Below, piece by piece: positions 18,648 through 38,845 of a DNA stretch of 64,000 nt. Under the pieces are notes generated by a model. It did not search any database and was not told the DNA's origin. It was given only the letters and a program-made list of their open reading frames with translations. The position numbers and the translations under genes are program-made. The DNA comes from Candidatus Kaiserbacteria bacterium (GTDB lineage: Bacteria > Patescibacteriota > Minisyncoccia > Phycocordibacterales > Phycocordibacteraceae): the NCBI GenBank assembly GCA_016182485.1, contig JACPGH010000003.1, forward strand, positions 6,331-70,330. Reading direction: 5' to 3'. Within the stretch, counting starts at the first letter, position 1. Each line of letters starts with the position of its first letter.

Positions 18648-18660
18648 GTTTGGAGTGTAC

Positions 18661-19245: not shown

Positions 19246-19302
19246 ATTAGAAATATAGCACAGTACTGCCCACGCCTGTTCGCCTCGCAGGAGTATACTT
19301 TC

Positions 19303-20373: not shown

Positions 20374-20471
20374 TCCTTAATAGCGCAAGAAAAAAGCCCT
20401 TAAATGCTAGTTCCCGTCCGGGCCGTCGTTTAATGGGGGCAGGAATACCAGACTCAAGCTATACTTAGCGC

Positions 20472-21049: not shown

Positions 21050-21323
21050 GTATAAAAAGGCGCGAGGAGGGTATTCTCGATTGTTGGATATCGCCTGTCA
21101 GAAATGTGGCATCTCCATTTGTGAGTACCAAAAAGACGGAGCAGGAAACTTGCGACGAATGTATGTCGACAGGATTATTGATCCTAAGATTTCTTTGGCC
21201 CGAAAAGACCTGACTTGTCCGAAACGACATTTGTTGGGAGTGAAGATAATTTACGAAAAAGAGAAAAGACCGGCGTTCAGGTTGTTTGTTGATTCGGTTA
21301 CAAAAAGGATTATTAAAATCTGA
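21030..21323 (+). CDS. Hypothetical small Cys-containing protein
   Basis: CQKCGISICEY...CPK suggests a zinc ribbon. Weak support. Confidence 0.3.
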   Translation: MKLKNDKYKKARGGYSRLLDIACQKCGISICEYQKDGAGNLRRMYVDRIIDPKISLARKDLTCPKRHLLGVKIIYEKEKRPAFRLFVDSVTKRIIKI

Positions 21324-21324
21324 G

Positions 21325-22077
21325 ATGGAAACAAACGGTAGTCTAATACAAACTTGCCAAAAATTGATTGATGCCTACAAAACAGGCAAGATTGGACAGA
21401 CTCGTATGCCGGAAGATTCGAATCCTGGGTTCGCTGAAGATAAATGGGATATGCGTCTCGCTTACTTCACTTTACCAATGGCACTCAACTATCAGCGGGA
21501 TAGCTATAAACTCTGGGAGGCAGCACTCGAGACTTTTCGTGATCCAGAAACGCACTTTGTGTTTGATATCGCAGAGGTTTCTTCAAGACGAGAAGAGGAA
21601 GTAAGAGCAGCGCTACTGAAACATAGACTTGCATTGCAGCCGAATAAACATATCCATACGTGGCGCATCATTGCCACGACCGTGAAGAATAATTGGGGCT
21701 CGTTCGATAATTTTATGAAGGCCACAGACGGAGATTTTCTTAAACTCAAGCAACTCGTCCAGTCTGATTTCAAGAAAGGATTCCCGTATCTTTCGGGACC
21801 GAAAATCTTCAATTACTGGTCGTTCATTATCAGCACGTACGGAGGAGTCAACCTCAAGAATAGATATCAGATTGATATCGCGCCGGACACCCACATTATT
21901 CAGTGCTCGGTGAAGCTTGGTGTCATCACGCAAGGTGAGGCCGAGAAACTGTCGAAAGAGAATATCTCGCAACGCTGGAGAGAGATTCTGAAGGGAAGCG
22001 GTATCGACCCGATAGATATGCATCCGCCTCTTTGGTTTTGGAGTAGAAACAATTTCATATTTGATCAGATTGGCTAA
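21325..22077 (+). CDS. HhH-GPD-like DNA glycosylase superfamily protein (weak)
   Basis: FPYLSGPKIFNYWSFII...IAPDTHIIQCSVKLGVI resembles the HhH-GPD helix-hairpin-helix and Asp loop. Start at METNGS. Confidence 0.4.
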   Translation: METNGSLIQTCQKLIDAYKTGKIGQTRMPEDSNPGFAEDKWDMRLAYFTLPMALNYQRDSYKLWEAALETFRDPETHFVFDIAEVSSRREEEVRAALLKHRLALQPNKHIHTWRIIATTVKNNWGSFDNFMKATDGDFLKLKQLVQSDFKKGFPYLSGPKIFNYWSFIISTYGGVNLKNRYQIDIAPDTHIIQCSVKLGVITQGEAEKLSKENISQRWREILKGSGIDPIDMHPPLWFWSRNNFIFDQIG

Positions 22078-22078
22078 T

Positions 22079-22220
22079 AAAAGACGGGCGCTGGAATCGA
22101 ACTACGCTGCGCAAAGCAAAAAATGGGGACAGGAATCGAACTCTGAGCCTATTCTGACGATGTTCGTTATCTTATACGACCGCGAGAGATAACAAACATC
22201 GGATTTGAATACTTTCCGCC
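22079..22220. repeat. 142-bp direct repeat, copy B
   Basis: See copy A. Two mismatches; the hairpin has a single arm mismatch. Confidence 0.85.
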
Positions 22221-22358
22221 GTCTGGTTGTAGAATGCCAGTTCATTTCGTCAGGGGTAGTATAGTACCGCCAGGCATCTGACTCCGTAAAGAGCACAAAA
22301 GTCGCGATGTACGTCGCGGCATTTGTGTTTGTCCAGGCACGCTATACTATGAATCATC

Positions 22359-22892
22359 ATGATCATCCATTTCATTACTGGAAGCAAGAACAAGCTCGCA
22401 GAAATGCAAGCGATTTTAGGCGATGTCGAGCAACTTGATATTGCTCTGCCAGAAATACAGGAAATAGACGCGCATAAGATAATCCGCGCCAAGCTGGAGG
22501 AAGCCCTCAAGCATAAAAAGGAAGCATTTATAGTAGAGGACACATCACTCTACTTCGACGCTCTCAACGGCCTCCCAGGCCCACTAATCAAGTGGTTTAT
22601 GAAGACTGTTGGTAATGATGGCCTCTTCAAAATGGCGGAATCCTTTGGGAACTACGGAGCTGAGGCGAAGACGATCATCGGCTATACCGATTGGTCTGGA
22701 GACATTCAATTCTTCGAAGGATCAGTGCGAGGCGCGATAGTCGCCCCACGAGGCGAGACTAATTTCGGCTGGGACCCCATCTTTCAGCCGGAAGGAAAAG
22801 ACAAGACTTTTGCCGAGCTAACGGCCGAAGAGAAGAATGCATTTAGCATGCGCAAGCTTGCCGCCGAGAAACTGAAAACACATTTATTATGA
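22359..22892 (+). CDS. rdgB: Non-canonical purine NTP pyrophosphatase (ITPase, RdgB/HAM1 family)
   Basis: ITGSKNKLAEM N-terminus; TSLYFDAL; FGWDPIFQPEG; EEKNAFSMR. Confidence 0.85.
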   Translation: MIIHFITGSKNKLAEMQAILGDVEQLDIALPEIQEIDAHKIIRAKLEEALKHKKEAFIVEDTSLYFDALNGLPGPLIKWFMKTVGNDGLFKMAESFGNYGAEAKTIIGYTDWSGDIQFFEGSVRGAIVAPRGETNFGWDPIFQPEGKDKTFAELTAEEKNAFSMRKLAAEKLKTHLL

Positions 22893-23311
22893 CTATTATG
22901 ACGGACTACTCAAAATTCTTGGTCAAAGAATATACACACTGGCTAGTGAATGTGCACGAGAACCAGGGATACCTTGGCAGATGCATTGTATGGTGCAGGC
23001 GCGAGGATGCGCTTGATCTAGCAGACGCAACTGAGGCAGAGCAAAAGGAACTCATTACCATCCTCGGCGAAATACGAGAAGCTACGAAGCGAGCATTCCA
23101 GGCAGACTGGTTCAACTATGCGTTTCTCGGCAACGGCACACGACATCTCCATGGGCATTTCATCCCGCGTTACTCATCATCGCGAATGTTTGAAGGGATG
23201 ACTTTCATCGACGACCGATGGGGTCATAACTACAGAACCAATCACGATTTCGTTACGCCGCCCGAAGTATTGGATGCGGTAAGGGAAAAATTGAAAGCCG
23301 AGCTACAATAA
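22889..23311 (+). CDS. HIT-family (histidine triad) hydrolase
   Basis: HLHGHFIPR histidine triad motif. Confidence 0.8.
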   Translation: MTIMTDYSKFLVKEYTHWLVNVHENQGYLGRCIVWCRREDALDLADATEAEQKELITILGEIREATKRAFQADWFNYAFLGNGTRHLHGHFIPRYSSSRMFEGMTFIDDRWGHNYRTNHDFVTPPEVLDAVREKLKAELQ

Positions 23312-23315
23312 ATTT

Positions 23316-23633
23316 ATGAGTCAACACAAAATTGTCGTCTATGTTCCTTTAACCAATACCGATTCCGTAAGGGAAGCTATTGGCACGGCTGGAGGCGGCA
23401 AACTAGGTAAGTATTCCTTTTGCAGCTTTTCAACGCGAGGCATTGGCAGATTTAAGCCTGAAGAAGGGGCGCATCCGCACATTGGGACAGTTGGAGAATT
23501 GGAACAGGTAGAAGAAGAACGAATCGAGGTCACTTGCGATTCTCGAGTTGTGGGGAATGTTCTTGCAGCGATCAAGCGGGTGCATCCATACGAAGAAGTC
23601 GCGATGGATGTATGGCAACTGGAGAGTTATTGA
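23316..23633 (+). CDS. Small conserved alpha/beta protein (PII/Nif3-insert-like, COG3323-type; uncertain)
   Basis: KIVVYVP...AIGTAGGG...HPYEE pattern. 105 aa. Confidence 0.45.
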   Translation: MSQHKIVVYVPLTNTDSVREAIGTAGGGKLGKYSFCSFSTRGIGRFKPEEGAHPHIGTVGELEQVEEERIEVTCDSRVVGNVLAAIKRVHPYEEVAMDVWQLESY

Positions 23634-23635
23634 TG

Positions 23636-23725
23636 GGGAGCGGAATCGAACTGGTGCAGTCTACTGTTTACACCAGTTCTTGAGTTCCCGTCCCGGTCGT
23701 GCAAGACGGGGGCAGGAACCCCCGT
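23636..23725. repeat. tRNA-like / T-arm-containing structured element (GGAATCGAAC family)
   Basis: ggggagcggaatcgaactggtg...actgtttacaccagttcttgagttcccgtccc followed by GC hairpins (cccgtc/gacggg; ggggg-caggaa-ccccc). The 3' part recurs at 20408-20447. Confidence 0.4.
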
Positions 23726-23775
23726 ACTTTACTGATTATCAGATTCAAAGCTATACTTGGTACAACAGACGGGTT

Positions 23776-24396
23776 ATGAAAAAGAAGACACAAATACTTA
23801 TCATTCATGGCGGAATGACCTTCAAAAACGAGAAGGATTATCTGCATTTCTTGAAGAACAGAGAAATTTCTCTTAAAAAGAAGGTAAGTTGGGCTGGTGA
23901 CTATCTGGATAAAGAATTAGGAAGAGGACTTGAGATCATCAGGCCGCGCATGCCACTACAGGACAATGCGAAGTATAGAGATTGGAAGATTCATTTTGAG
24001 CGACATCTCCCGCATCTAAGGAGTAATGCCATTTTAGTTGGATCTTCATTGGGTGGTATTTTTCTCGCGAGGTACCTATCTGAAAATAAGTTACCTAAAA
24101 AAGCGTTGTCGATATATTTAATATGCCCACCTTTTGACAATTCCGTAAAAGGGGAAGATTTAGTTGGTGGCTTTACGCTTAAGTCTGACCTCTCCTTGCT
24201 TAAGAAAAATTCCAAGAACCTGCATCTGCTTTTTTCAAAGGATGATGAAACCGTGCCGGTCTCTCACGCCAAAAAATATAGGGGAAAGCTGAAAGACGCG
24301 CATATTGTTGTCTACAAAAGCAAGAACGGACACTTCAAGATATCCACATTTCCGGAAATCATAAAAATGATCAAGGAAGATGTTAAAGGATCATAA
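23776..24396 (+). CDS. Alpha/beta-hydrolase (YdeN/RBBP9-like serine hydrolase)
   Basis: GSSLGG nucleophile elbow, Asp and His downstream. AT-rich relative to its surroundings. Start at MKKKTQ. Confidence 0.7.
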   Translation: MKKKTQILIIHGGMTFKNEKDYLHFLKNREISLKKKVSWAGDYLDKELGRGLEIIRPRMPLQDNAKYRDWKIHFERHLPHLRSNAILVGSSLGGIFLARYLSENKLPKKALSIYLICPPFDNSVKGEDLVGGFTLKSDLSLLKKNSKNLHLLFSKDDETVPVSHAKKYRGKLKDAHIVVYKSKNGHFKISTFPEIIKMIKEDVKGS

Positions 24397-24401
24397 ATCC
24401 T

Positions 24402-24740
24402 ATGATCTCATACGATGATTTTGAGAAAGTAGATATCCGAGTCGGGAAGATTCTCGAAGTGCAGGATTTTCCTGAAGCGCGGAATCCGGCATTCAAGCTG
24501 AAGATAGATTTCGGCCCTGAGATCGGCACGAAATTATCTAGCGTGCAGGCGGTAGACGCACACACCAAAGAAGAGCTACAGGGAATTCTAGTCTGCTGCG
24601 TAGTCAACTTCCCGCCAAAAAAGATAGGCCCATTCGAATCCGAAGTCCTTACGCTCGGGTTCAAGAATACGGCAGGTATCGGATGGGTGCTCATCACGCC
24701 CGCCAAAGCGAGTGTCGAGATTGGCAGTAAGTTGCAATAA
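24402..24740 (+). CDS. csaA: tRNA-binding domain protein (CsaA/Trbp111/MetG-C-like), intact copy
   Basis: 112 aa OB-fold tRNA-binding domain pattern (DIRVGKI...E). A truncated paralog lies at 20852. Confidence 0.75.
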   Translation: MISYDDFEKVDIRVGKILEVQDFPEARNPAFKLKIDFGPEIGTKLSSVQAVDAHTKEELQGILVCCVVNFPPKKIGPFESEVLTLGFKNTAGIGWVLITPAKASVEIGSKLQ

Positions 24741-24747
24741 ATCCAAT

Positions 24748-25317
24748 ATGGAAATCGGAATCTGGGGAGACAGCATTACCTACGGCGCGGGTGACACTAT
24801 GGCACTCGGATGGGTAGGGCGACTGCGAAAATTGCTTGAGAAGAACGAAGATATAAGTGTCTACAACTTTGGCGTGTGTGGAGATACGACTGACGATCTG
24901 GCCAAGCGCTTCCTGGTGGAGGCGGACTCTATTAAACCGAATGTCGTCATTTTCGCCATTGGAATAAACGACTCAAAATACTCCGTTGGTGAGACTGCAA
25001 GCGAGGTCCCACTCGAGAGCTACAAACAGAATATGCGAGAGCTCATAAAGCTCGCGAGAAAGTACACCGACAAAATTCATATCGTTGGGGCTACGAAAGT
25101 CGATGAAACTTCTATGCGGGAGAGCGGTACACGCTTTGTGAACGATACGATCCGGTCTTATAACAATTTCCTCAAAGAATTTTCTGAATCAGAAGGCCTA
25201 CTCTATGTAGATGTTTTCGATGCGCTTGATATACATACCGATTTAGATGATGGCCTGCATCCGAACGCACAGGGCTATGAGAAATTATTCAATATGATAC
25301 AAGAATTCGTAAAATGA
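24748..25317 (+). CDS. SGNH/GDSL hydrolase family protein
   Basis: IWGDSITYGAGD (GDS block I), block III GINDS, and the DxxH region. Confidence 0.75.
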   Translation: MEIGIWGDSITYGAGDTMALGWVGRLRKLLEKNEDISVYNFGVCGDTTDDLAKRFLVEADSIKPNVVIFAIGINDSKYSVGETASEVPLESYKQNMRELIKLARKYTDKIHIVGATKVDETSMRESGTRFVNDTIRSYNNFLKEFSESEGLLYVDVFDALDIHTDLDDGLHPNAQGYEKLFNMIQEFVK

Positions 25318-25346
25318 CGAGGGTCGGACATTAGTGCATAGCCCTA

Positions 25347-25375
25347 TTGACAGAAAAGATGGGGCATGCTATGAT
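25347..25375 (+). promoter_or_regulatory. Sigma70 consensus-like promoter for cspA (TTGACA-N17-TATGAT) with a long 5' UTR
   Basis: Read directly. About 95-nt leader before the cspA ATG, typical of cold-shock mRNAs. Confidence 0.6.
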
Positions 25376-25473
25376 GGATTTCGTCAACCAGCGGCTGAGC
25401 CAGAGAAGTGGGCTCGAGCTTCAATTCCAGCTTACTGCATTGATACATTAGTCCAACCAAAATTCAATTGCAC

Positions 25474-25677
25474 ATGCAAGAAGGAACCATCGCTCGCCTC
25501 ACTGATAAGGGCTTCGGCTTTATCAAGGTGGCGGGCCAGGAGAAGGACCTTTTCTTCCATTCCAATGAGCTCGTCGGCGTTTCGTTCGACTCGCTTCAGG
25601 AAGGGGACAAGGTGACCTTCGAAGTCGCCGACAGCCCGAAGGGCCCGAACGCGATTAAGGTCAGCAAGGCCGCGTAA
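25474..25677 (+). CDS. cspA: Cold-shock protein (CspA family)
   Basis: KGFGFI (RNP1) and LFFHSNE/VSFD (RNP2-like). 67 aa. Confidence 0.9.
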   Translation: MQEGTIARLTDKGFGFIKVAGQEKDLFFHSNELVGVSFDSLQEGDKVTFEVADSPKGPNAIKVSKAA

Positions 25678-25690
25678 GCTGCCGATCCGC

Positions 25691-25716
25691 AAAAAAGCGC
25701 CCACGGGCGCTTTTTT
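25691..25716 (+). terminator. Rho-independent terminator after cspA
   Basis: aaaaaagcgccc-acg-ggcgcttttttg. Confidence 0.8.
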
Positions 25717-27091
25717 GCATCATGGAAGGGGATGGAGACTTCTGTGGAGTAGCATCCGACCGTGTTATAATTTAAATCACGTGAATAGCAACGGTAAGCA
25801 GCACGGGTTGGATCGGTATGCATTCGAAAAGACCCGTTCAATTTTGAGATTATTCCGCAATGGAAGCAAGCGGGTTCCACAAGGCCGTACGCCAGGTAAG
25901 GTTAAAGTCGCCTTCATCCATGGCGAGAAACGGCTGGGTTCAGGCATTCGTACCGGTGCGGCGCAGATCAACCGGCTCATGGTAAGCGCACTTAATGAGC
26001 GCCGCGTGTTGGTGCGGAACTTCTATCCGCGCGTGCAGCTATTTGATACCCCCGCGCATATCAAAGGCATAGCGAATATTTTGTTCTTCTATTCTCTTCT
26101 GGAACACAAAAATGAGATGCTAAAGTACGATGTGATCCAAGGAACTACCTATACGCCGCTCCCGTTTCTTACGTTTGACGTGCCGGTCGTGTGCCATTTC
26201 GGGTCTACTGCCCGCGGTTATCTCGCTTCTACGCCGCGAACTTCCGAACTGCCGCCTCATGAACGGGCTGTTTACAAAGAATTCGTGCGGCTTGGCGTCA
26301 TTCCTGAATTTGATTATAAGACATTGCGTCCGATAGAAGACGTTGCCGACATCGAAGCTGTCGCCGCGCAACGCGCGGCAGCATGTGTCGCCACTTCTGC
26401 AAAAGTCAGGGATGAGCTTATCGCGGCAGGAGCACGTCCCGAGCGCATATGGCTCATCCACAATGCGATCGAGGATTATTGGTTCTATCCGCCGCGCGAA
26501 ACTGCGCCTCAGCAACCGCACCTCGTTTTCTTGGGGCGACTCGGTAATGACGTATTCACTCTTAAACTCAAGGGTCTTTCCAGGCTCGTTAATTTTTACA
26601 ACGCTTTTCCGGAGACGCCGAAAACTACCGTATGCATGACGACCAATCGCAAGCTAAAGGAATGGCTTCGCGTCGCGTTCCCCTTGCATTATATGTACGT
26701 CAATCTGCGAAAAGATCTTATCCCGGGAGCGCTGGCTCCATTGCGCGGAAGTATCTTATTCCTTTCTTCCCGATATGAAGGGTTTTCTCTCAGTCTGATA
26801 GAAGGCATGTCGCAGGGACTGGTTCCTGTTGCCTTCCCAGTTGGCGTAGCCGAGGAAATCATACGAGACGGAGAAAACGGCTTTCTGGTCTCATCTACGG
26901 AAGAAGCTATTGCGCGGACGGGATTACTACTGGCAGACGATGCGAGGCGCCTCGAAATGGCTAGGGCTGCCCAGCAAACCGCAGCGCAATTCAGGGCAGA
27001 ACGCATAGCTGAAGATCTGGAACGGCTCTATCTGGAACTAAAGCGAGAACGGCAAGAACAGCGCGATCGGATTCCATGTGAGGCGAACTGA
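25715..27091 (+). CDS. Glycosyltransferase family 1 (GT4-like); start uncertain
   Basis: C-terminal EGFSLSLIEGMSQGLVPVAFPVGVAEEIIRDGENGFLV matches the GT1 E-x7-E region. The true start is probably an internal or non-ATG codon near 25900. Confidence 0.7.
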   Translation: MHHGRGWRLLWSSIRPCYNLNHVNSNGKQHGLDRYAFEKTRSILRLFRNGSKRVPQGRTPGKVKVAFIHGEKRLGSGIRTGAAQINRLMVSALNERRVLVRNFYPRVQLFDTPAHIKGIANILFFYSLLEHKNEMLKYDVIQGTTYTPLPFLTFDVPVVCHFGSTARGYLASTPRTSELPPHERAVYKEFVRLGVIPEFDYKTLRPIEDVADIEAVAAQRAAACVATSAKVRDELIAAGARPERIWLIHNAIEDYWFYPPRETAPQQPHLVFLGRLGNDVFTLKLKGLSRLVNFYNAFPETPKTTVCMTTNRKLKEWLRVAFPLHYMYVNLRKDLIPGALAPLRGSILFLSSRYEGFSLSLIEGMSQGLVPVAFPVGVAEEIIRDGENGFLVSSTEEAIARTGLLLADDARRLEMARAAQQTAAQFRAERIAEDLERLYLELKRERQEQRDRIPCEAN

Positions 27092-29497: not shown

Positions 29498-30331
29498 ATG
29501 TCGCGCGGCGAGGTGCGAATAGGGACGTCCGGGTGGATGTACAAAGATTGGGGTAAAGAATTCTATCCGTCCGGGATGAGGGAGGGTTTCCTGACGTATT
29601 TGGCAGGCGAATTCGACACGGTCGAGATAAACAATTCTTTCTACCATCTGCCGCTCATGAAGACCTTTTCGGCATGGAGGGCTCAAACTCCGGAGCATTT
29701 CCTGTTCGCCGTAAAATTATCGCGTTATATCACGCATAGGAATTTGCCGAGCGCGCGGCAGCCGCTTTTCCGCTTTCTCTCGCACGCGAAGCGGCTGGAG
29801 CATAAACTGGGGCCGATTCTGGTCCAACTCCCGCCCTGGAAGAAATTTTCCGAGGAATGGCTCGGCCGTTTCCTAACGGATGTACAGGCGGCTGCGCAGC
29901 GCGCGCGTATTTCTCCGAGATTCGCTCTTGAACCCAGGCACGCGAGCTGGCTTGAGAATATTGAAACCGTTCGCGAACGACTTCGAGAGGTAAACATAGC
30001 GCTCGCCCAGCACCAAACTGGGTTTGGTGCTGGGCTCGTCTTCCCGCATTCCGCAAAGATACCTTCCATTCCGCCGGACGAGGCAAACATAACCGCAGAT
30101 TTCGCCTATGTCCGTTTCCACGGCCCTTCCGAATTCGCCGCTTCCCGCTACGGGGAGAAGCGCTTAAAGCCGTGGGCGGAACGGATCAGCAAATGGCAGG
30201 AAAAGGGGGTTCAGATATTTTGCTATTTCAATAACGACGTGCATGGACATGCCGTCCATGACGCGCGCACGTTAAAGCAGCTTGTAGGCATCAGCGAGCC
30301 TCGCGCGAGAACTCTTTTTCAAGACGGGTAA
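29498..30331 (+). CDS. DUF72 (YecE-like) family protein
   Basis: IGTSGWMYKDW...FYP...VEINNSFY is the DUF72 N-terminal signature. Start at MSRGEV. Confidence 0.8.
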   Translation: MSRGEVRIGTSGWMYKDWGKEFYPSGMREGFLTYLAGEFDTVEINNSFYHLPLMKTFSAWRAQTPEHFLFAVKLSRYITHRNLPSARQPLFRFLSHAKRLEHKLGPILVQLPPWKKFSEEWLGRFLTDVQAAAQRARISPRFALEPRHASWLENIETVRERLREVNIALAQHQTGFGAGLVFPHSAKIPSIPPDEANITADFAYVRFHGPSEFAASRYGEKRLKPWAERISKWQEKGVQIFCYFNNDVHGHAVHDARTLKQLVGISEPRARTLFQDG

Positions 30332-32138
30332 CGGCCTCCTTAAGGTCCACGCTTTGTGCAAGCATCGGCCGCATCAGGTCGCCTTTCTTCTTGAGCCTTT
30401 CCAAAATCGTTTTGATATTGAACTTCTTTGGCTCGAGGCCCTTCTTCACCTCCCGCCACTCTAGTGGCGTGGAAACAGTCGCGCCGGCGAAAGGGCGCAG
30501 AGAGTAGGGAGCCGCGACGGTTTGCCCATAGCGGTTTTGCAGGTAGTCGAGATATATCTTGTCTTTGCGTTTCTTGGGCGAACGCTCGATGCTCGTTATG
30601 TCGGGCAGTTTACGATGCGCCAGCCGCATGATTAGTTCCGCAAAATCTTTCACCGCCTCATAGGGATACCGCCCGCCGAGCGGCACGAGGATATGCAGTC
30701 CTGTTTTGCCGCTCGTTTTGGGGTAGGAGCGCGCGCCGGCTTTCGCAAGTAGGCGGTTGATTTCGCCTGCGACCGCGATCACGTCCTCGAACGGACGTCC
30801 GTTCGGATCGATATCGAATATCATGAAATCCGGCTTCTCGAGATTCCCGACCCGCGAACTCCACGGGTTGATCTCGATACAGCCGAGATTCGCCATGTAG
30901 AGAAGAGTTTCTTTGTTGTTACAGACTAGATACTCGATCTTTTTCCGGTTCGTATCCGACCAGATCTTTACGCTCTGCGCGAAAGGCGGCACCGCGCCCG
31001 ATATGTCTTTCTGGAAAAAACTCTTGCCCTGCCAGCCGTTCGGATGGCGGTTCAGGTTTTCGGGCCGGCCTTTAAGATAAGGCAGGATGGTCTCGGCCAG
31101 GCGGTCGTAATACTCGATAAGGTCGCCTTTGGTGTAGCCTTCTTCCGGCCAAAAAACTTTATCAAGATTGCTGAAGTGCGGGCTTTTTACTTTTTCTGCC
31201 GCCTCATTCCTCGGGAATTCTCGCACCACTTCCTCGGGCTTTTTATCAATGCGAAGGCCGGCGTATACGGGATGGCGCATGTACCCCTCCGGCGTCCATT
31301 CTGAAAACGCGCTTTCGATTACATATTTCGGGTTCACCCAAGTGATCGGGGAGTTGATCGGCACGCGCTCTTTGAGAGGCGCTGTATTCCGGACTGTTTT
31401 CGACAATGTAGCGTGGAGCTCGGCGAGTTCGCGGTCGGTAAAGCCGCCTCCCGAATGGCCGATATACCTGAGCCGCCCGTTCTCGTATGCGCCGAGCACG
31501 AGAGCGCCTAAGTGCTTGCGCGAGCCGCGCGGCTTCGTGAAGCCGATAATGACGGCTTCCTGTGTATTGAGATTCTTTACTTTGAGCCAGTCCCCGCCGC
31601 GAACTCCCTCGCGATAGGGACTTTTCGGATCCTTAGCCACCATGCCCTCGAGCCCGTGCGCGCGCATGAGGTCGAAGAATTTCTTGCCGTGGTTTTCGGC
31701 GTGTTCGCTAAAAAGCAGGTGTGCGTCGTGCGGCAATATCTCGCGCAGGCGCTTCTTGCGCTCGGAGAGCGGCTTCTGGCGCAGGTCCTCTCCGTCAAAA
31801 TAGAGCAAATCGAATACCGCGTATTGGAGTGGGGAGGGCACATGCTCATAGTCTTGCAGCGCGTGAAAGTCCGGTCTGCCATCCTTAAGCGCGATGATTT
31901 CTCCATCGAGCACGCAAGTATGACGGATCTTCTTAAGGGCTCCCGCGATCGGCGCATACCGTTTTGAGAAATCAATGCCGTGGCGCGAGTAGAGCCGTAC
32001 GGAACCGGACTCGATCTCGGCAATGGCGCGGTAGCCGTCCCATTTCGTTTCGAAGTACCAGCCGTCTTTATCGAACGGCTCGCGAACCAGGGTCGCGAGC
32101 ATCGGGCGCACGCGCCGCGGCATTTGCGCGCGCGTCAT
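30291..32138 (-). CDS. ligD: ATP-dependent DNA ligase LigD, ligase + polymerase (PolDom) domains
   Basis: KWDGYR (KxDG) ligase motif in the N-terminal half; LigD primase-polymerase domain in the C-terminal half. Start at MTRAQMP, a 4-nt overlap with the upstream PE ORF. Confidence 0.85.
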   Translation of the reverse strand: MTRAQMPRRVRPMLATLVREPFDKDGWYFETKWDGYRAIAEIESGSVRLYSRHGIDFSKRYAPIAGALKKIRHTCVLDGEIIALKDGRPDFHALQDYEHVPSPLQYAVFDLLYFDGEDLRQKPLSERKKRLREILPHDAHLLFSEHAENHGKKFFDLMRAHGLEGMVAKDPKSPYREGVRGGDWLKVKNLNTQEAVIIGFTKPRGSRKHLGALVLGAYENGRLRYIGHSGGGFTDRELAELHATLSKTVRNTAPLKERVPINSPITWVNPKYVIESAFSEWTPEGYMRHPVYAGLRIDKKPEEVVREFPRNEAAEKVKSPHFSNLDKVFWPEEGYTKGDLIEYYDRLAETILPYLKGRPENLNRHPNGWQGKSFFQKDISGAVPPFAQSVKIWSDTNRKKIEYLVCNNKETLLYMANLGCIEINPWSSRVGNLEKPDFMIFDIDPNGRPFEDVIAVAGEINRLLAKAGARSYPKTSGKTGLHILVPLGGRYPYEAVKDFAELIMRLAHRKLPDITSIERSPKKRKDKIYLDYLQNRYGQTVAAPYSLRPFAGATVSTPLEWREVKKGLEPKKFNIKTILERLKKKGDLMRPMLAQSVDLKEAVTRLEKEFSREAR

Positions 32139-32722
32139 GGCCGCTTCGAGTCGCGCGGGAGCTTCTTGCCGGTCTTCACCGATTTCGTATCTTTTGTGAC
32201 GTCTTTCGCGCTCGCGTATTTGTCCTTTTCTTTGATCAAGAGCCAAGCATTGTCCTTCCCGCCCTTCTGATTTCGGATTTTCACGAGCGCGAAGCCGCCT
32301 TGGAGCTTTTTGCCGAGCAGGACGAATTTAAGCTCTCCTTCGCCGTACCCCTGTCTAAGCTTTTCGCGGCTCTCTTTCGGGTCGGCCGTTTCGCTCGAGG
32401 TATACAGCCCCTCGTCCCAGACTATGACGTCTCCCGCGCCGTACTCTCCCTCCGGAATGACGCCCTCGAAATCTTTGTATGAATACGGGTGGTCCTCGAC
32501 CTCCATCGCGAGCCGCTTGTCGGCCGGATTGAGCGACGGGCCTTTCGGCACGGCCCAGCTCTTCAGTACGCCGTCTAGCTCGAGGCGGAAATCGTAATGC
32601 AGGCGCGAAGCGTCGTGCTTCTGCACGACGAAATGAAGTGCTCCCGTCCGTGAAGCTTTTTGCGGTTTGGGTTCCGGTGTTTTAGAGAATTTGCGTTTCT
32701 TTTTATATTCAGCTAACGGCAT
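32135..32722 (-). CDS. LigD 3'-phosphoesterase (PE) domain protein, separate ORF
   Basis: HYDFRLE and SWAVPKG motifs of the LigD PE domain. Lys-rich C-terminal tail. Confidence 0.8.
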   Translation of the reverse strand: MPLAEYKKKRKFSKTPEPKPQKASRTGALHFVVQKHDASRLHYDFRLELDGVLKSWAVPKGPSLNPADKRLAMEVEDHPYSYKDFEGVIPEGEYGAGDVIVWDEGLYTSSETADPKESREKLRQGYGEGELKFVLLGKKLQGGFALVKIRNQKGGKDNAWLLIKEKDKYASAKDVTKDTKSVKTGKKLPRDSKRP

Positions 32723-32740
32723 GCTCCTATTTTAGTGGCC

Positions 32741-32768
32741 TTGACATGGTAAAGCAAGTGTGTATACT
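32741..32768 (+). promoter_or_regulatory. Sigma70 promoter (TTGACA-N16-TATACT) for the DGR target gene, divergent from ligD
   Basis: Read directly. AGAGGAG Shine-Dalgarno 8 nt before the ATG at 32843. Confidence 0.55.
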
Positions 32769-32842
32769 ATAAAAAGCTAATGAACGCGGTTCCCGTGTTC
32801 AGGGCAGCTATGTACTTTCGTGCTTTCAGAGGAGATGACGCC

Positions 32843-33475
32843 ATGGCGAAAGCTGTGTCCCCATCCGCAGTGAATCCCATTAGCATTGGGCAGGCCGCGA
32901 AGTTCCTCGACCTGCAGATGGCCGCGCTACGCAAGAGCGGCCTGCCGAGCGGACCAACGCAGCAGGTGCTCGAGAGCCAGGGCGCCGCTCTGGCCGACGA
33001 GTTCGTCACATTGGTCCGTAGGCGCGTCGAGGCAATCTCGGATCTAATCGTCCGCGTCGTCGCGAAGGTCGACCGCTCGCGCACGCCGCAGGAGGCACTC
33101 GACGCGACTGGTCGAACGCAGTACGTCGACCGCGGTGTCGCGAAGGCGATGCCGCGTGGCACGGGCGAGGGTGCCAAGACGGAATTTTTCGAGCTCGATC
33201 TCTCGCGGCGCGGCGGATGGATCAGCGACTCTGACCTCGACAAGGAGTACGCGCTCCGTGGCCTCGTCCCCGAGGATCCTTACTCGCTCGCGGCACAGAA
33301 CGAGGCTGATCCGGCCTTCGCCGACGAGCACCCCAACGCCACGCACTGGAAGGATGCGAATGGCAGTTGGTGTTACGCGGCGTTCTTCCTCTGGCGCGAT
33401 GAGCGCTACGTGCGCGTCCACCGCTGCGACAGCGACTGGCTCGACCGCTGGTGGTTCGCCGGTCGCCGCAAGTAG
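32843..33475 (+). CDS. DGR target (variable) protein with C-terminal VR
   Basis: The 3' ~100 nt (VR) pair with the downstream TR and differ almost only at TR adenines. The C-terminus ...LWRDERYVRVHRCDSDWLDRWWFAGRRK corresponds to TR-encoded ...LWNDERNLNVNRNDNDWNDNWWFAGRRN. Start could also be 32780 or 32810. Confidence 0.7.
   Translation: MAKAVSPSAVNPISIGQAAKFLDLQMAALRKSGLPSGPTQQVLESQGAALADEFVTLVRRRVEAISDLIVRVVAKVDRSRTPQEALDATGRTQYVDRGVAKAMPRGTGEGAKTEFFELDLSRRGGWISDSDLDKEYALRGLVPEDPYSLAAQNEADPAFADEHPNATHWKDANGSWCYAAFFLWRDERYVRVHRCDSDWLDRWWFAGRRK
33375..33472 (+). repeat. DGR variable repeat (VR)
   Basis: Aligns with 33792-33889. TR AAC codons correspond to VR TAC, CGC, CAC, TGC, AGC, CTC and CGC. 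There are 11 A-site substitutions and one non-A (C to G) change. An identical GC-rich 3' end ctggtggttcgccggtcgccgcaa (IMH-like) is followed by hairpins at 33480-33580. Confidence 0.8.
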
Positions 33476-33791
33476 TTCTAGGGACTCGATCCTCGGTTCT
33501 TTCAGAACCTTGGGATTGAGTCCTTGCATTCGGGCTCCGCATTGCCTCACGGCGTGCGGAGTCCTTTCGTTTTGATACAATCGATAACGGCGCTAGGCGA
33601 ATACGCGGGCGACCACGCGTCTCCCGCTGCCCGCGATCACGGTTTCGAGTAGCGTGGTGTATGTAGACCTTAAAAATTGAAGATACTTGGTGCGGACCTC
33701 TCTGGCATTATAATGCCGAATCAGATACAGCTCGGAGATCGGCAGAGGCCTTCAATGGGCAGTGGTACGGATGGAGGTCCGCACATTGCGA

Positions 33792-33889
33792 CGTTCAACC
33801 TCTGGAACGATGAGCGCAACCTGAACGTCAACCGCAACGACAACGACTGGAACGACAACTGGTGGTTCGCCGGTCGCCGCAACTCTTCA
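33792..33889 (+). repeat. DGR template repeat (TR)
   Basis: AAC-rich (8 AAC codons in the VR reading frame). The overlapping six-frame ORF 33677-33985 is incidental. Confidence 0.8.
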
Positions 33890-34303
33890 TTCCCCGGCCC
33901 CGCCCTCATGCGGGGCTTGGTTTTGTTTGGTCAATTGACCATTCCAGCCGCCGAGCATTCTGCCGACCTCCTCAAGCGGAATTGAGAGAGCGGCGTATCG
34001 CTTTGTCTCGAACGAATTTGTTTCCCAGAGCACCATAAGCAGCAGCTTGACGGTATCGAGCTTGCGGATGGCGAGCCGCACCCACGGTTGCTTCTCACTG
34101 CGCTGCAGGACTCCCGCGAATCCGGCGGCCTCGATAACGTCGATAAACAATGCATCAATGCGGTTGCCGAGCGTGTAGCGGTGGAGCTTCGGGAGTTTCT
34201 GATATTCGTACCAAAGCAGATATGCCGCCTTTAATTTCTGCAAAACCGGAAGAATCGTCGGGGGGGGGGGTTGCTCATGGAGTCTTGCATACGACAATAT
34301 CAT
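33887..34303 (-). CDS. avd: DGR accessory variability determinant (Avd)
   Basis: C-terminus EVGRMLGGWNGQ and the upstream helices match Bordetella phage bAvd (EVGRILGSWIAR..., LPKLHRYTLGNRID versus IPRKHGVAREMF). 139 aa. Contains a PPPP stretch encoded by the C11 run. Confidence 0.8.
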   Translation of the reverse strand: MILSYARLHEQPPPPTILPVLQKLKAAYLLWYEYQKLPKLHRYTLGNRIDALFIDVIEAAGFAGVLQRSEKQPWVRLAIRKLDTVKLLLMVLWETNSFETKRYAALSIPLEEVGRMLGGWNGQLTKQNQAPHEGGAGE

Positions 34304-34744
34304 TTCCGTCGAAAACCTGCTTGCCGCATGGCAGGAATTCGCGAAAGGGAAGCGCAAGAAAAGCGATGTGCAGGAATTCGGGCGATATTTGATGCAGAAT
34401 ATTTTGGAGCTACACCGCGACCTTGCGGCCGGCACCTTTAAACACGGCGGGTGCGGACGATTTCGTTATCCTTTCCGCTGAACGAACACAGCTGCTCGAG
34501 TCTCTACGATATATCGTAGTATTTCTCCGCGCCCGTCTGAAACTCACATTGCATCCCGATAAAGTCTCTGTCTAGAGAAGCGACGATTGCCTCATATCTA
34601 GGCATGCTTCGCCATGGCAATACGAACAAACTGCAACAAGTTCCACTCAATGCCGCTAGACTGCTTTCTCAAGCTTGCGGATCCTGCGCTCGTGATCGAA
34701 AATCCGATCCCTATCTCTATCGTGAGCGTCGGAAAGAGATGTGA
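34222..34744 (+). pseudogene. DGR reverse transcriptase remnant (N-terminal region only; frameshifted, multiple stops, 3' truncated)
   Basis: Frame-0 translation DNIISVENLLAAWQEFAKGKRKKSDVQEFGRYLMQNILELHRDLAAGTFKHG aligns with the bRT N-terminus (DQITTWENLWDAYRKTSHGKRRTWGYLEFKEYDLANLLALQAELKAGNYERG). RP..TH..A (motif 2) is recognisable further on. The ATG at 34222 is in frame only if the G tract were 12 nt. Stops at 34479, 34519, 34558 and 34742. No YxDD region anywhere downstream. Confidence 0.7.
34260..34270. repeat. G11 (C11) homopolymer tract at the divergent Avd / RT 5' ends
   Basis: cgtcgggggggggggttgc read directly. It lies within the Avd N-terminal codons and immediately upstream of the RT homology. 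Confidence 0.9.
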
Positions 34745-34760
34745 GTTCATCCTGAATGTC

Positions 34761-35006
34761 TTAAATCCTATTCTGAACCTTTCCTAACGTACGCTGCACG
34801 TCTCCGAGACGGACATCTATATTATCCATGCGATCATCCATCGCATTAAATCTCTGAGTTGTTCTTCCCTCGAAATTGTCAACGCGTTTCTCTACGGTAT
34901 CAAATCGCTTATCTACGGTATCAAACCGCTCATTCATTACCGCAAGCACTTCGCCGAGTGTCGGTTCGGGTATAGCAGCTTTTCTTATCCGCTTCATGTC
35001 TGCCAT
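34761..35006 (-). CDS. Small coiled-coil protein downstream of ku, containing a 21-bp tandem duplication
   Basis: MADMKRIRK...FDTVDKRFDTVEKRVDNFEGRTTQRFNAMDDRMDNIDVRLGDVQ. The DNA 34895-34936 is two 21-bp units with 2 mismatches. Confidence 0.45.
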   Translation of the reverse strand: MADMKRIRKAAIPEPTLGEVLAVMNERFDTVDKRFDTVEKRVDNFEGRTTQRFNAMDDRMDNIDVRLGDVQRTLGKVQNRI

Positions 35007-35037
35007 TGTATCACCCTCACCAAACGGATTGCGGGTG

Positions 35038-35832
35038 CTACCGCGTTCCGGAGTGGGCGGGGCGGCGCTCTTGCTCAAGGCTCTTGCGCAGGGCTTCCAT
35101 GAGATTCCGCATATCGGTCGGGACGGGAGCTTCTTCTTCGGATACCTTGATCGGCTTGCCTTTCGCCTTGCGGGCGATAACTTTCTTCAGATCGCCGGTA
35201 TAGGTGTCCTTATATTGGCTCGCGTCGAAATGTTCCTCGAGCTGCTTGATGAATGCGACGGTAAGGTCGAATTCTTTGCTTGAAAATTTAGTAGATTCGG
35301 GGATATGCAGGTCTGTAGGCTTGCGTAATTCCTCTTCGAATCGCAGGCGGATGAGCATGAGCGCCTTGCCCTCGGGCTTGAGCATGGCGATATGCTCGCG
35401 GTCTTTCAGAACGAACGTGCCTATGCCGACCTTTTTAGAACGCGCCAGCGCTTCGCGCAGGAGCACGTACGCTTTCTCGGCGCTCGGATCCGGCTCCAGA
35501 TAATACGGCTTTTCTATGAACCGGCTTTCTACCTCCTCCTCGTTCGCGAAGCTCTGCACGTCGATCGTCTTGGTCTTCTTGGGCGCCGCTTTCTCGAAAT
35601 CCTCATCGGTCAGTATCACATAATCGCCCTTCTGATATTCGTAGCCTTTTACGATATCTTCGGGTTTCACCTCCTCATTCGTCCCGCGACATACCTTGAG
35701 GTAGCTGATGGGGCAGTGCCCATGCTTGTCGAGCAGGCGGAACGAGAGCGCCCGCTCCTCGCTCGCGTTGTAAAGCTTTACGGGTATGGATACTAGGCCG
35801 AAAGTAAGCGCGCCTGACCAGATTGCTCTCAT
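35038..35832 (-). CDS. ku: Ku protein (NHEJ DNA end-binding)
   Basis: MRAIWSGALTFGLVSIPVKLY N-terminus and Ku core. Lys-rich C-terminal tail. 264 aa. Confidence 0.9.
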   Translation of the reverse strand: MRAIWSGALTFGLVSIPVKLYNASEERALSFRLLDKHGHCPISYLKVCRGTNEEVKPEDIVKGYEYQKGDYVILTDEDFEKAAPKKTKTIDVQSFANEEEVESRFIEKPYYLEPDPSAEKAYVLLREALARSKKVGIGTFVLKDREHIAMLKPEGKALMLIRLRFEEELRKPTDLHIPESTKFSSKEFDLTVAFIKQLEEHFDASQYKDTYTGDLKKVIARKAKGKPIKVSEEEAPVPTDMRNLMEALRKSLEQERRPAHSGTR

Positions 35833-35911
35833 ATAACTACTATGACCCGCCCCGAATGACGGTTCGATGAATCAGGATAAGTGGAACGTTTTCCACATGG
35901 TCATGGCCATA

Positions 35912-35993
35912 TATACCCCCCTCAGGGTATACTGGCCGTATACCATCTTTCGTATGGAAAAACTTTGACCAATACCCCCATAGGGTATATACT
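35912..35993 (+). promoter_or_regulatory. csoR promoter (TTGACC-N17-TATACT) with two CsoR-type operators (TATACCC-N6-GGGTATA and ATACCC-N5-GGGTAT)
   Basis: Operator 1 is tatacccccctcagggtata (35912-35931). Operator 2 is atacccccatagggtatat (35972-35990) and overlaps the -10 element. Confidence 0.6.
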
Positions 35994-36000
35994 TTGAGAC

Positions 36001-36273
36001 ATGGAATATATGCCCAAAACGGAGAAAGGGAAACTTGTGCGCCGGCTCAAGATTATCGAGGGGCAGGTGCGGGGGCTTGTCGCGATGATCGAACGGGACA
36101 CCTATTGCATCGACGTCATAACTCAGACTTCGGCGGTGAAGCAAGGACTTTCCACGGCAGAGGACCTGCTCATGAGGAATCACCTGAATAACTGCGTCCG
36201 GAACCAAATGTCGTCAGGGCAGGCGCTAAAAGCCGTTAGCGAGGTTATGAAGGTGTATAAATTGAAGAAATAG
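36001..36273 (+). CDS. csoR: Copper-sensing transcriptional repressor CsoR/RcnR family
   Basis: [33 protein letters not shown] with the conserved Cys and His ligand positions. 90 aa. Confidence 0.8.
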
Positions 36274-36280
36274 CACTTGC

Positions 36281-38845
36281 ATGAAAACACAAACATATAA
36301 GATCCACGGTATGCACTGCGCGAGCTGTGTGGCGGTCATCGAGCGCGTACTTGGCAGAACGGTCGGCGTCCGCTCCGCCTCCGTAAATTTCGCTGCCGAA
36401 TCCGCCCTAGTCGAATTCGATGAAAAGGCGGTTTCAGAGCCGCAACTTGCCGAAGCGGTCGCTTCCGCCGGCTATCATCTGATCACCGGCGCAACTGATG
36501 GACAAACTGATGGACACGTCGCGTCCATCAAAGCTGAAGGACACGACGTGTCTACAACCCGGACCATTTCAATCCAAGTGCTCGGTATGGATTCGCCGCA
36601 TTGCGCCATGGTCGTAGAGGGCGCGCTCAAGAATCTGCCCGGCATACGGAACTCCGAACTGGATTTCGCCAACCAGCGGGCGAAGATTTCTTTCGACTCC
36701 CCGTTGACCGCAGAGCAAATTTTCGCAGTGATCCGTGACGCCGGATACAAGCCCTTTCTTGAGGAGGGGAGGGCAGAAGACCTTTTGGACAGGGAGAAAG
36801 TCGAACGGGAACAAGAGGCGCGGATCATGAGGCGCAAGCTTGCGGTAGGGGGAATTCTGGCGGTGCTCGTATTTCTCGGCAGCTTCCCGCAATGGTTCCC
36901 GTTCATGCCCGAGATAGCAAGGAATCCCTGGACCCTGCTCCTCCTCACCGCCCCGATCCAGTTCTGGGTCGGTTCGCAATTCTATAACGGGCTCAAATTG
37001 CTGGTGAAATACCGGACGGCTGACATGAACACGCTGGTTGCCATCGGCACTCTCTCCGCATTTCTTTACAGCGCGGCAGTCACGGCCTTTCCAGACTTCT
37101 TCATGCGGGGCGGTATCGCGCCCGAGTTATACTTCGACACCTCGGCCATAATCATCGTTCTTATCCTCTTGGGAAAGTATTTTGAGATCCAGATGAAAGG
37201 CCGAGCTTCAGAAGCGATAAAGAAGCTCATCGGACTACAGCCGAAGACGGCTATAGTCCTTCGGGATGCAAAAGAAGTTGAGATACCCATCATCGAAGTC
37301 GTCCCTGGAGACAGAGTCATCGTCCGCCCCGGGGAGCGCATACCGGTAGACGGGAAGATTCTCGACGGAGAATCTGAAGTGGACGAGTCAATGCTCACCG
37401 GAGAATCTATGCCCGTTCATAAAAAGGCGGGGAGCATGGTCATCGGGAGCACGATAAACAAATTCGGTACCTTTAGCTTTGAGGCCGCCAAAGTCGGCAA
37501 GGACACCATTCTTGCGAGGATAATAAAGATGGTGGAAGAAGCTCAGGGCTCTAAAGCGCCGATCCAGCGGTTGGCGGACCTTATTTCCTCTTATTTCGTG
37601 CCGGCAGTTCTCGGTATTGCGATCGCCACCTTTGGCGTCTGGCTCTTTTTCGGCCCGGCACCAGCCTTCACGTTCGCTCTAGTTAATTTTGTAGCAGTTC
37701 TCATCATCGCCTGCCCGTGCGCGCTCGGCCTCGCCACGCCAATGGCTATCATGGTTTCTGCTGGCAGCGCCGCCGGGAAGGGGATACTGATAAAAGACGC
37801 GGCTTCGCTCGAGATCGCGAACAAAATCAACACGGTCGTCCTCGATAAGACAGGCACGCTCACGGTGGGGAAGCCGGAGTTGACCGATATCGTCGCCTGG
37901 AATAACGCGCAGCAGCCGGAGGTTCTTCACTATGCCGCGTCGCTCGAGCAGAGGTCGGAGCATCCGCTCGCGCAAGCCATTCTGCAATATGCCGCGAGCC
38001 TGGATCAGAAATCGTCGCATCCTTTGGATAGCGCGATCATCGCCGAAGGCGCAAAGGAGAAGCTCGCTCTCTACCGGCTGGAAGATTTTCAGGCTATTTC
38101 CGGTAAGGGTTTGCGCGGGTATTTGTTCGACGGTTCGCAGAAATATGAAGCGCATCTCGGTAACCGGAGCCTTATGGAAGATATAGGGCTTTCGACTGCG
38201 CCGTACGAAAAAACGATTGCCGATCTCGAGAGCCAGGGGAAGACCGTCATGATCCTCGCGGCAGAAAGAGAGATCAAGGGCGCGCTCGCGGTGGCGGATG
38301 TGCTGAAGAAAGAATCTGCCGCCGCAGTCCGAACGCTCAGGAAAAAAGGCATAGACGTCTGGATGCTTACGGGAGACAACGAGCGCACGGCTCGCGCTAT
38401 CGCGAAAGAAGCCGGAATAGAGAATGTAATGAGCGGCGTTCTCCCCGATCAGAAAGCGCTCAAAATACGCGAACTGCAGACGGCGGGGAATATCGTCGCG
38501 ATGGTGGGCGACGGCATAAATGATGCGCCGGCGCTCACGCAGGCGAATATCGGCATCGCCATGGGAGAAGGCACGGATATCGCGATGGAATCAGCGAACA
38601 TAACGCTTATGCGCGGGGACCTGAGGCTTATTCCGGAAGTGATCCAACTCTCGCAGCGGACTTTGCGGATAGTCAAGCAGAACCTGTTCTGGGCCTTCTT
38701 CTACAACATCGCGTTCATCCCCGTCGCGGCAGGAGTCTTATATCCGTTTTTCGGCCTCCTGCTCAATCCGATCTTCGCGGGCGCCGCCATGGCCGCGAGC
38801 AGCATCAGCGTAGTGCTCAATTCCCTGCGGCTTCGGAGTGTATAG
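36281..38845 (+). CDS. copA: Copper-translocating P1B-type ATPase
   Basis: Two HMA domains (GMHCASC and MDSPHCA), CPC motif (ACPCALG), [17 protein letters not shown]. 854 aa. Confidence 0.95.

Follow-up and report, generated by a model that had tools for sequence, protein, structure and literature searches.

The locus and its components

The stretch of DNA analysed here, hereafter the window, comprises 64,000 nucleotides (nt) of a Candidatus Kaiserbacteria metagenome-assembled genome (MAG; contig JACPGH010000003.1) and contains, near its middle, a diversity-generating retroelement (DGR). The cassette lies on the plus strand, between a pair of genes for a LigD phosphoesterase and LigD on one side and Ku on the other. 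It is composed of a target gene ending in a variable repeat (VR), a template repeat (TR), an inverted avd accessory gene and what is left of a reverse transcriptase (RT) gene. An original prediction, made from the letters alone, had proposed a DGR with these parts; all the components that it named are present, and they are homologous to those of intact cassettes in related genomes. The protein-coding features and the sequences bordering the VR are the following, in amino acids (aa) or nt and in window coordinates:

32741-32768, plus strand: promoter-like site of the target gene (TTGACA, 16 nt, TATACT; 11/12 consensus positions; a consensus match only)
32843-33475, plus strand: gene of the variable (target) protein, 210 aa and a stop codon; the longest open reading frame (ORF) starts at 32780
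33377-33471, plus strand: VR, the last 31 residues of the target; its variable positions are hypervariable columns of the family alignment
33448-33471, plus strand: block resembling an initiation of mutagenic homing (IMH) site, identical in VR and TR; 24 nt, 71% GC, A only at the last two bases
33474-33536, plus strand: long imperfect hairpin, main stem 33479-33526, cruciform-capable; minimum free energy -31.8 kcal/mol, z = -5.9
33532-33574, plus strand: terminator-like hairpin and T-run that would close the target transcript, as read from the sequence; equivalent in most related loci
33788-33882, plus strand: TR; C at position 33821, where five other assemblies have G
33887-34243, minus strand: avd accessory gene, intact; stop 33887-33889, TTG start 34243, alternative ATG 34306
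34242-34452, plus strand: first RT remnant fragment (fragment 1), matching residues ~5-78 of an intact RT of 353 aa
34453-34572, plus strand: second RT remnant fragment (fragment 2; ADDFV...LHPDKVSV), matching residues 240-279, not in the frame of the first
34565-34642, plus strand: third RT remnant fragment (fragment 3; C-terminal ...SYLGMLRHGNTNKLQQV), matching residues ~316-342, in a third frame

Divergence of the VR and the TR

The VR and the TR form a direct repeat of 95 nt with an offset of 411 nt and 82% identity, which the repeat search returned as the sole long direct repeat in the region. The original prediction had located the VR to within 2 nt, while its TR range (33792-33889) was shifted by about 4-7 nt. 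Compared base by base, the two copies show 17 mismatches, 16 of which fall on adenines of the TR; the adenine changes found in the VR are A to G (6), A to T (5) and A to C (5). The proposal that the differences are confined to adenines of the downstream copy thus holds, and a tabulation by TR base reveals no spread over the four bases (16 A, 1 C). With 26 A among the 95 nt of the TR, the hypergeometric probability of at least 16 of the 17 mismatches lying at A is P = 1.4e-10. All 26 TR adenines occupy codon position 1 (11) or 2 (15) in the frame of the target gene, and none occupies position 3. Ten codons are recoded, namely nine AAC and one ACG, the latter becoming GCG; the seven recoded AAC codons that had been listed beforehand are real, but an AAC to TTC change, the change of the first AAC to CGC and the ACG codon had escaped notice. 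When every A of the TR is made degenerate, the resulting pattern matches only the VR and TR sites in the window, with an expected number of matches of 0.

The single mismatch that is not at an adenine, C33821 in the TR facing G33410 in the VR, had already been singled out as a point to check, and it is real in this assembly. The equivalent of position 33821 is a G, the same base as in the VR, in 5/5 independent assemblies of the same population (L001-L005). The TR copies of these assemblies agree with the TR-specific adenines on both sides of the position, and therefore represent true TR sequence and not VR. Because five independent assemblies have G, the exception is a TR substitution or polymorphism in the window's assembly and involves no mutagenesis outside adenines; with the G33821 allele, 16/16 of the VR/TR differences are at adenines. 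Through the C, a TR codon reads CTG instead of GTG, which codes for the Val that the VR has and that hardly varies across the family, and the TR has begun to drift in the window's assembly (G33821C).

At its 3′ end, the homology between VR and TR stops at CGCAA, a boundary that is equal in 37 related loci, and the hairpin that follows the VR begins 3 nt past this point. Both the GC-rich identical block and the cruciform-capable hairpin had been foreseen. A nested hairpin stands at the same place after the VR in the related loci, with z < -2 in 21/37 of them when each locus is folded separately. RNAalifold applied to a MAFFT alignment of this post-VR region yielded no consensus structure, since it is the shape of the hairpins that is conserved and not their sequence. 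An IMH-like block followed by an inverted repeat, the arrangement expected of a DGR, is therefore found at the VR, with a putative function.

The target protein and the invariance of its VR

The VR corresponds to the last 31 codons of the 210-aa target ORF, whose product ends in ...WWFAGRRK, in agreement with the earlier proposal that the VR is the 3′ end of a gene (ORF 32780/32843-33475). The longer call of the protein is NCBI MBI2409618.1, from the Candidatus Kaiserbacteria MAG. Neither Pfam nor NCBIfam has a match for the protein. Its homologs number 652, each of about 200 aa, and all the named ones belong to Patescibacteria (Parcubacteria, Kaiserbacteria, Andersenbacteria and others). When the family is aligned, backbone identity to the window's protein amounts to 55-73%, and the C-terminal motif F.xW.DER.V.V.R...DW.D.WWFAG.RK is hypervariable exactly at the positions of the AAC codons of the TR. 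The protein is predicted to adopt a C-type-lectin-like fold on which the VR would be displayed.

The exact 210-aa protein is found on 7 contigs from different sequencing runs as well as in the MAG, and five of the seven contigs cover the TR. Its 90%-identity cluster holds zero sequence variants. As a control, four relatives in which no cassette defect was detected (P0042, P0059, P0103 and P0111) have clusters whose members differ almost only in the last 36 residues, at VR positions, including one cluster in which 15/15 variable columns are VR positions; in P0020, a relative lacking the cassette, the VR does not vary. The MAG differs from the other assemblies at neutral sites, namely 33821, 34111 (avd V45F) and three near 28.4 kb, but has the same VR. 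At the level of the assembled consensus, the VR is frozen, and ongoing diversification was not observed.

The avd gene and the RT remnant

The avd gene lies on the minus strand directly downstream of the TR, where a bAvd homolog had been proposed. Its product matches NF033474 (E 4.1e-14; 52.8 bits, with a cut-off of 80; profile positions 1-102 of 104) and PF22296 (E 1.9e-7), and it shares 63% identity across its whole length of 115 aa with the L008 Avd, which is annotated with PF22296 and neighbours an intact RT. The profile matches and the position beside a DGR RT place it in the Avd family. Window position 34111 is polymorphic (C/A, in comparison with three other assemblies), with a Val to Phe change at residue 45 of Avd when numbering begins at the TTG start.

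The RT was mapped by tblastn with 8 intact RTs of related loci (E down to 7e-33), and the mapping is consistent across the eight queries, with three frames being used. Fragment 1 is the N-terminal homolog that had been recognised previously; the gene is not represented by its N-terminus only, as the ADDFV and C-terminal pieces are present too. There is no canonical in-frame start codon ahead of the conserved N-terminal motif of fragment 1. Profile homology, which had been put forward as a check for both proteins, is clear for Avd at scores below the curated cut-offs and weak for the RT, in which fragment 2 gives an RVT_1 match with E 0.022. The missing parts of the RT are residues about 79-239 (~160 aa, comprising motifs 1-4 and the Y of YADD) and 280-315 (~36 aa). 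An intact DGR RT with catalytic motifs 1-7 is thus absent from the locus, and no other RT is found in the window. In pairwise comparison, the fragments are 45-70% identical to the RTs of intact Patescibacteria cassettes, and a search of the concatenated fragments against 5.8 billion proteins found no close intact allele, with nothing exceeding 76% identity.

A homopolymer of 11 G (34260-34270) occurs at a conserved Gly run of the RT N-terminus, which is also upstream of the avd start on the opposite strand. The tract, also found in two other assemblies, may be a hotspot of slippage. Its consideration as a phase-variation switch of the RT was rejected as irrelevant, because the catalytic core of the RT is deleted regardless.

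A structured template RNA extending 5′ of the TR

The region from the target gene to avd was aligned across 37 loci of the family, and the comparison of the window copy with its intact relatives exposed a covarying RNA domain. Its elements have the following positions in the window:

33573-33581, plus strand: extended -10-like box (TGATACAAT) of the template RNA, a candidate promoter
33590-33787, plus strand: structured 5′ domain of the DGR RNA; a defective copy with a 29-nt deletion after 33630
33675-33683, plus strand: 5′ strand (AAUUGAAGA) of a long-range duplex, pairing with 33884-33892; just before the invariant UACUUGGU
33690-33701, plus strand: 5′ strand of a 12-bp helix, from covariation in model R1
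33773-33784, plus strand: 3′ strand of the 12-bp helix, abutting the 5′ boundary of the TR and ending 4 nt before it
33884-33892, plus strand: 3′ strand of the long-range duplex, which is the 3′ flank of the TR (UCUUCAUUC), pairing with 33675-33683
33896-33930, plus strand: hairpin (33896-33917) and U-tract, terminator-like, directly after the TR, from a terminator scan

Transcription of this RNA would start from the extended -10-like box. Indeed, a TGnTAnAAT-like box stands 6-8 nt ahead of the conserved GGYAGUAGGYGAAUAU in 34 loci, after the terminator-like hairpin of the target gene. Another candidate for the TR promoter, TTGGTG-N16-TATAAT at 33689-33716, was withdrawn, as covariation assigns this stretch to conserved RNA helices (the GGCAUUAUAAUGCC hairpin). 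Similarly, a 102-aa ORF at 33677-33985 (plus strand) spans the TR in the frame of the VR, and gene callers annotate a 76-aa product there in other assemblies; it was rejected as a gene and is regarded as a TR pseudo-ORF that overlaps the conserved RNA helices.

The structured 5′ domain measures roughly 210 nt in the cassettes of this family, and RNAalifold predicts 46 pairs in it, 39 of which show compensatory changes. A covariance model, R1, was built without the window copy and comprises 211 positions and 53 pairs. It matches every cassette locus, at least 20 of which were outside model building, mostly with 150-234 bits and with lower scores for a few divergent copies, and it has zero matches on the opposite strand. 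In the window, R1 scores 111 bits at 33602-33791, and 57 model positions are replaced by 23 nt. The alignment shows that 29 nt after position 33630 are absent from the window copy in comparison with all relatives (the equivalent in L013 is CGAAUCCAGUAUCCAUACAUUCAGAAUAU). Within the 5′ half of the domain, no part is more conserved than the deleted stretch, which forms one strand of a helix, while the 3′ half, the duplex bridging the TR (6-7 of 9 pairs) and the terminator hairpin are kept. A search of Rfam 15, including the RT-1 to RT-19 motifs, gave no match at E <= 1 in window positions 32000-36000 or in five intact loci, and no description of the present RNA was found in the searchable literature (Paul et al. 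2017 being outside its coverage).

Two elements of this RNA bracket the TR. On the 5′ side, the 3′ half of the domain is closed by the 12-bp helix, and the distance from this helix to the start of the VR/TR homology is 1 nt in 20/34 loci and within -3 to +11 nt in 34/34. On the 3′ side, the family-level duplex, whose strands are denoted AAAUGAAGA / UCUUCAUUU, joins the segment AAAUGAAGN, located just ahead of the invariant UACUUGGU, to the complementary N′CUUCAUUU, located 3-4 nt beyond the end of the VR/TR homology. In anchored windows, 88% of cells are paired and 7/9 pairs are changed on both sides in a compensatory manner, a level of pairing that 0/500 shuffles reach and that falls to 45-62% in slid controls. 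Permuting the partners between loci reduces the mean number of paired positions from 8.16 to 7.70 ± 0.07, with 0/2000 permutations as high; in these statistics, the register was the one that gave most pairing among small offsets, and the sequences compared are relatives of one another. The hairpin after the TR shows seven pairs with compensatory changes across the 37 loci.

Relatives of the locus and loss of the cassette

The target family was surveyed at 80 loci of species-representative genomes, 65 of which have at least 2 kb of downstream sequence. These 65 loci are distributed as follows:

37/65: full cassette
24/65: target only
2/65: partial (L055, L064)
1/65: RT interrupted (L083)
1/65: scaffold gap (L043)

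The 37 full-cassette loci have the order target, TR, avd (minus strand) and RT (plus strand), with RT ORFs of 330-487 codons. In the intact comparators L008 and L009, the target gene (plus strand) is followed by about 330 nt, the TR, bAvd (minus strand) and a 353-aa RT (plus strand). The window locus falls in the rare partial class. L043 was considered as a second example of a TR and Avd without RT, and was rejected, the RT stretch being a run of N in the scaffold.

Remnants of the cassette RNA persist downstream of the target gene in 7/24 target-only loci, which are therefore descended from full cassettes. Partial matches to R1 with 18-91 bits, located about 100-250 nt past the target gene and without TR, Avd or RT, are seen in L056, L076, L010/L014, L089, L040, L060 and L080; they represent graded remnants of lost cassettes. 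The view that all target-only loci are fossils was nevertheless rejected on account of L086. This target-only paralog (5001-5414) and the full cassette L023 (5001-5606) lie about 206 kb apart on the same Moranbacteria contig, CAVURJ010000001.1, and the VR of L086 differs from the TR of L023 by 17 adenine-site mismatches in a pattern unlike that of the local VR of L023. One TR thus serves two targets, L086 being a live-looking remote target, and orphan target copies can therefore be remote DGR targets.

L015 holds two copies of the structured RNA domain (5737-5949 and 8170-8381), with an Avd fragment (6052-6141) after the first and a full Avd and RT after the second. This layout suggests a partial tandem duplication or an insertion within the cassette.

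Surroundings of the cassette in the window

The DGR cassette is enclosed by an apparent non-homologous end-joining cluster on the minus strand (30291-32722 and 35038-35832), of which one flank holds a LigD ligase/primase-polymerase (PF01068, PF04679, PF21686) as well as a LigD phosphoesterase encoded separately (PF13298), and the other flank holds Ku (PF02735). DNA-metabolism genes (RecO, a Mfd-like helicase and dCTP deaminase) also adjoin the target gene in three other genomes. As related cassettes stand in unrelated contexts, the position of the cassette is not conserved. Between the RT remnant and Ku, a 105-aa ORF (34761-35078, minus strand) has weak coiled-coil-type profile matches only (DUF7310, MtrG), and a 21-nt tandem repeat within it (34879-34920) encodes a repeated RFDTV(D/E)KR motif. 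Directly beside Ku, on the plus strand (36001-38845), are a small CsoR-type metal-sensing repressor (PF02583) and then an 854-aa copper-type P-type ATPase with HMA domains. Further away, the stretch 18001-26000 has a GC content of 0.46-0.49, compared with 0.54-0.59 in its flanks, together with positive GC and AT skew, and may be a foreign island.

Comparison with known DGRs

Patescibacteria were already known to be rich in DGRs, and the B3-type DGRs found there represent the largest cellular DGR group. The B3 architecture, TR-(avd)-RT, accounts for 90% of the DGRs of the candidate phyla radiation (CPR; Wu et al. 2018, PMC5758913), and a DGR clade restricted to Patescibacteria, whose targets are without recognisable domains, has been described (Roux et al. 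2021, PMC8144416). The order TR (plus strand), avd (minus strand) and RT remnant (plus strand), in a CPR host, places the window locus in B3. It shares with CPR B3 DGRs the order and orientation of TR, inverted avd and RT, the host phylum, the adenine-specific mismatches, the AAC-rich TR and a short target without recognisable Pfam domain or transmembrane segment. It differs from them in that its RT consists of three out-of-frame fragments, its RNA scaffold carries the 29-nt deletion and its VR is invariant. Assignment to DGR clade 2 (Roux et al. 2021, PMC8144416) rests on the host phylum and the architecture, and not on placement in the published RT tree.

The prototype DGR is that of the Bordetella phage BPP-1 (mtd-VR, avd, TR, brt). 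The two systems have in common the adenine-directed mutagenesis from a TR to a C-terminal VR, a target with the C-type-lectin fold (predicted here), an accessory Avd, an IMH-like block rich in GC and, past the VR, a hairpin. DGR variable proteins with a C-type lectin fold (Mtd, 1yu0; TvpA, 2y3c) are the closest known systems for the window's target. However, the BPP-1 avd is co-oriented and upstream of the TR, whereas that of the window's family is inverted, and the BPP-1 DGR is borne by a phage, whereas the window's element is chromosomal.

The main differences concern the template RNA. In BPP-1, the essential structured RNA (Sp, with the priming adenosine) is 3′ of the TR, and this spacer is involved in all of a template:primer duplex beside the TR 3′ end, a cPRT Stop duplex at the 5′ boundary and an Avd-binding stem-loop just downstream (Handa et al., PMC6182149; bioRxiv 10.1101/2023.10.23.563531). 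The large structured domain of the window's family is instead 5′ of the TR, and a hairpin with a U-tract comes within about 15 nt after the TR. The survey of other DGRs by Handa et al. covered 40 nt upstream and 100 nt downstream of the TR only (bioRxiv 10.1101/2023.10.23.563531). Both RNAs combine a short duplex at the TR 3′ end with a helix bordering the TR on its 5′ side and a stem-loop that closely follows the TR. These elements are supported by covariation in the window's family, where their roles would be those of their BPP-1 counterparts; yet the strand that pairs with the 3′ flank of the TR comes there from upstream of the TR. By analogy, the post-TR hairpin would occupy the place of the Avd-binding stem-loop of BPP-1 (bioRxiv 10.1101/2023.10.23.563531). 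No sequence or model similarity is seen with the BPP-1 RNA elements or with the Rfam RT-10 motif (Weinberg et al. 2017, PMC5737381).

From this comparison, the upstream RNA domain may supply both the priming strand and the stop helix, in a permuted topology, in the Patescibacteria cassettes of this family. A broader proposal, which we put forward tentatively and hold to be somewhat more doubtful than probable, is that Patescibacteria B3-type DGRs use a permuted template RNA, in which the upstream domain of ~210 nt would provide a strand beside the TR 3′ end, as the likely cis-priming site, and a helix that would halt reverse transcription at the TR 5′ edge. The domain would then constitute an undescribed RNA family, of which the window holds a naturally crippled copy.

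Interpretation

It appears that the locus is a chromosomal Patescibacteria-type DGR of B3 layout that has become a fossil, with its RT gutted and its VR frozen, a reading to which we give a probability of about 0.88. The element is a DGR by descent that has ceased to function, given its gutted RT, a template RNA scaffold with a deletion and a VR that is invariant across assemblies; we infer that the loss of function is complete. In intact relatives, an RNA of roughly 365 nt would be transcribed from its own promoter, and its 5′ structured domain would fold, with AAAUGAAGA as the strand that pairs immediately 3′ of the TR. The RT and Avd would copy the TR from this duplex point, misincorporating opposite adenines, and synthesis would stop at the 12-bp helix abutting the TR 5′ edge. 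The complementary DNA would then replace the VR at the tip of the C-type-lectin-like protein, guided by the A-free GC-rich block and the downstream hairpin. The VR of the window retains the signature of this process, in the form of 16 changes at adenine sites, most of them in AAC codons. However, the RT gene has lost motifs 1-4 through two internal deletions accompanied by changes of frame, and 29 conserved nt are gone from the RNA scaffold, so that the VR is frozen.

Several points weigh against this reading. The Avd scores are under the curated cut-offs of both profile libraries (NF033474 and PF22296), and the steps of the RNA mechanism are drawn from covariation and from the analogy with BPP-1. 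Because the invariance of the VR is judged on the assembled consensus and not on reads, low-frequency variants would be missed. The target gene and avd are still open reading frames, and the RNA keeps its 3′ half, the duplex across the TR and its terminator hairpin, so that the decay is partial. Finally, the window gives a view of 64 kb of the genome, and an intact cassette elsewhere could act in trans, as on the Moranbacteria contig.

The last point leads to the best surviving alternative, namely that the DGR is still active and that an intact RT-Avd pair located elsewhere in the genome, perhaps with a matching TR RNA, diversifies the VR in trans. Trans targeting does occur in this family, given the match of L086 to a TR 206 kb away, and the TR, IMH-like block, post-VR hairpin, avd and RNA 3′ half of the window are intact. 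However, the VR is identical on the 7 independent contigs and the MAG, with zero variants in its 90% cluster, whereas relatives in which no cassette defect was detected show several. The RNA scaffold is without 29 highly conserved nt, no other RT or TR-like sequence is present in the window, and no close intact RT relative was found among the 5.8 billion proteins. Activity in trans is thus improbable.

Still less probable is the explanation that the deletions and frame changes of the RT are assembly artefacts, such as a collapse at the G11 homopolymer or at repeats, which would conceal an intact RT. The homopolymer itself and the fact that short-read contigs of the same population break inside the TR would be compatible with it. 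However, two independent assemblies from other sequencing runs (L092 and L093) cover 33840-38832 without gaps and with 99.98% identity, the whole RT remnant included. As they reproduce this region, the deletions are not an artefact of the window's assembly, and the missing parts amount to ~590 nt in total at two separate sites away from the homopolymer. The idea that the repeats are an ordinary duplication of a gene 3′ end that diverged at random, with an incidental similarity to Avd and RT, is barely credible, since it has nothing in its favour beyond the direct repeat itself, whereas the differences concentrate on the adenines of one copy, all at codon positions 1 or 2, and the arrangement with an intact RT and Avd recurs in dozens of species.

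As an instance of a DGR, the locus adds little, being a textbook signature in a DGR-rich phylum, and the RNA domain is of more interest than the locus itself. If this domain plays the role of the downstream spacer of BPP-1, it would offer a concrete, mutable model of priming and termination in Patescibacteria DGRs. Under the broader proposal of a permuted template RNA, the window locus would also record an order of DGR decay in which the RT and the RNA scaffold are affected first, while the TR, avd and the target gene persist. The locus is a clear intermediate in DGR loss and, taken with the survey, bears on the origin of the many orphan target copies in the family, some of which are fossils and others remote targets, with the target protein being kept after diversification stops.

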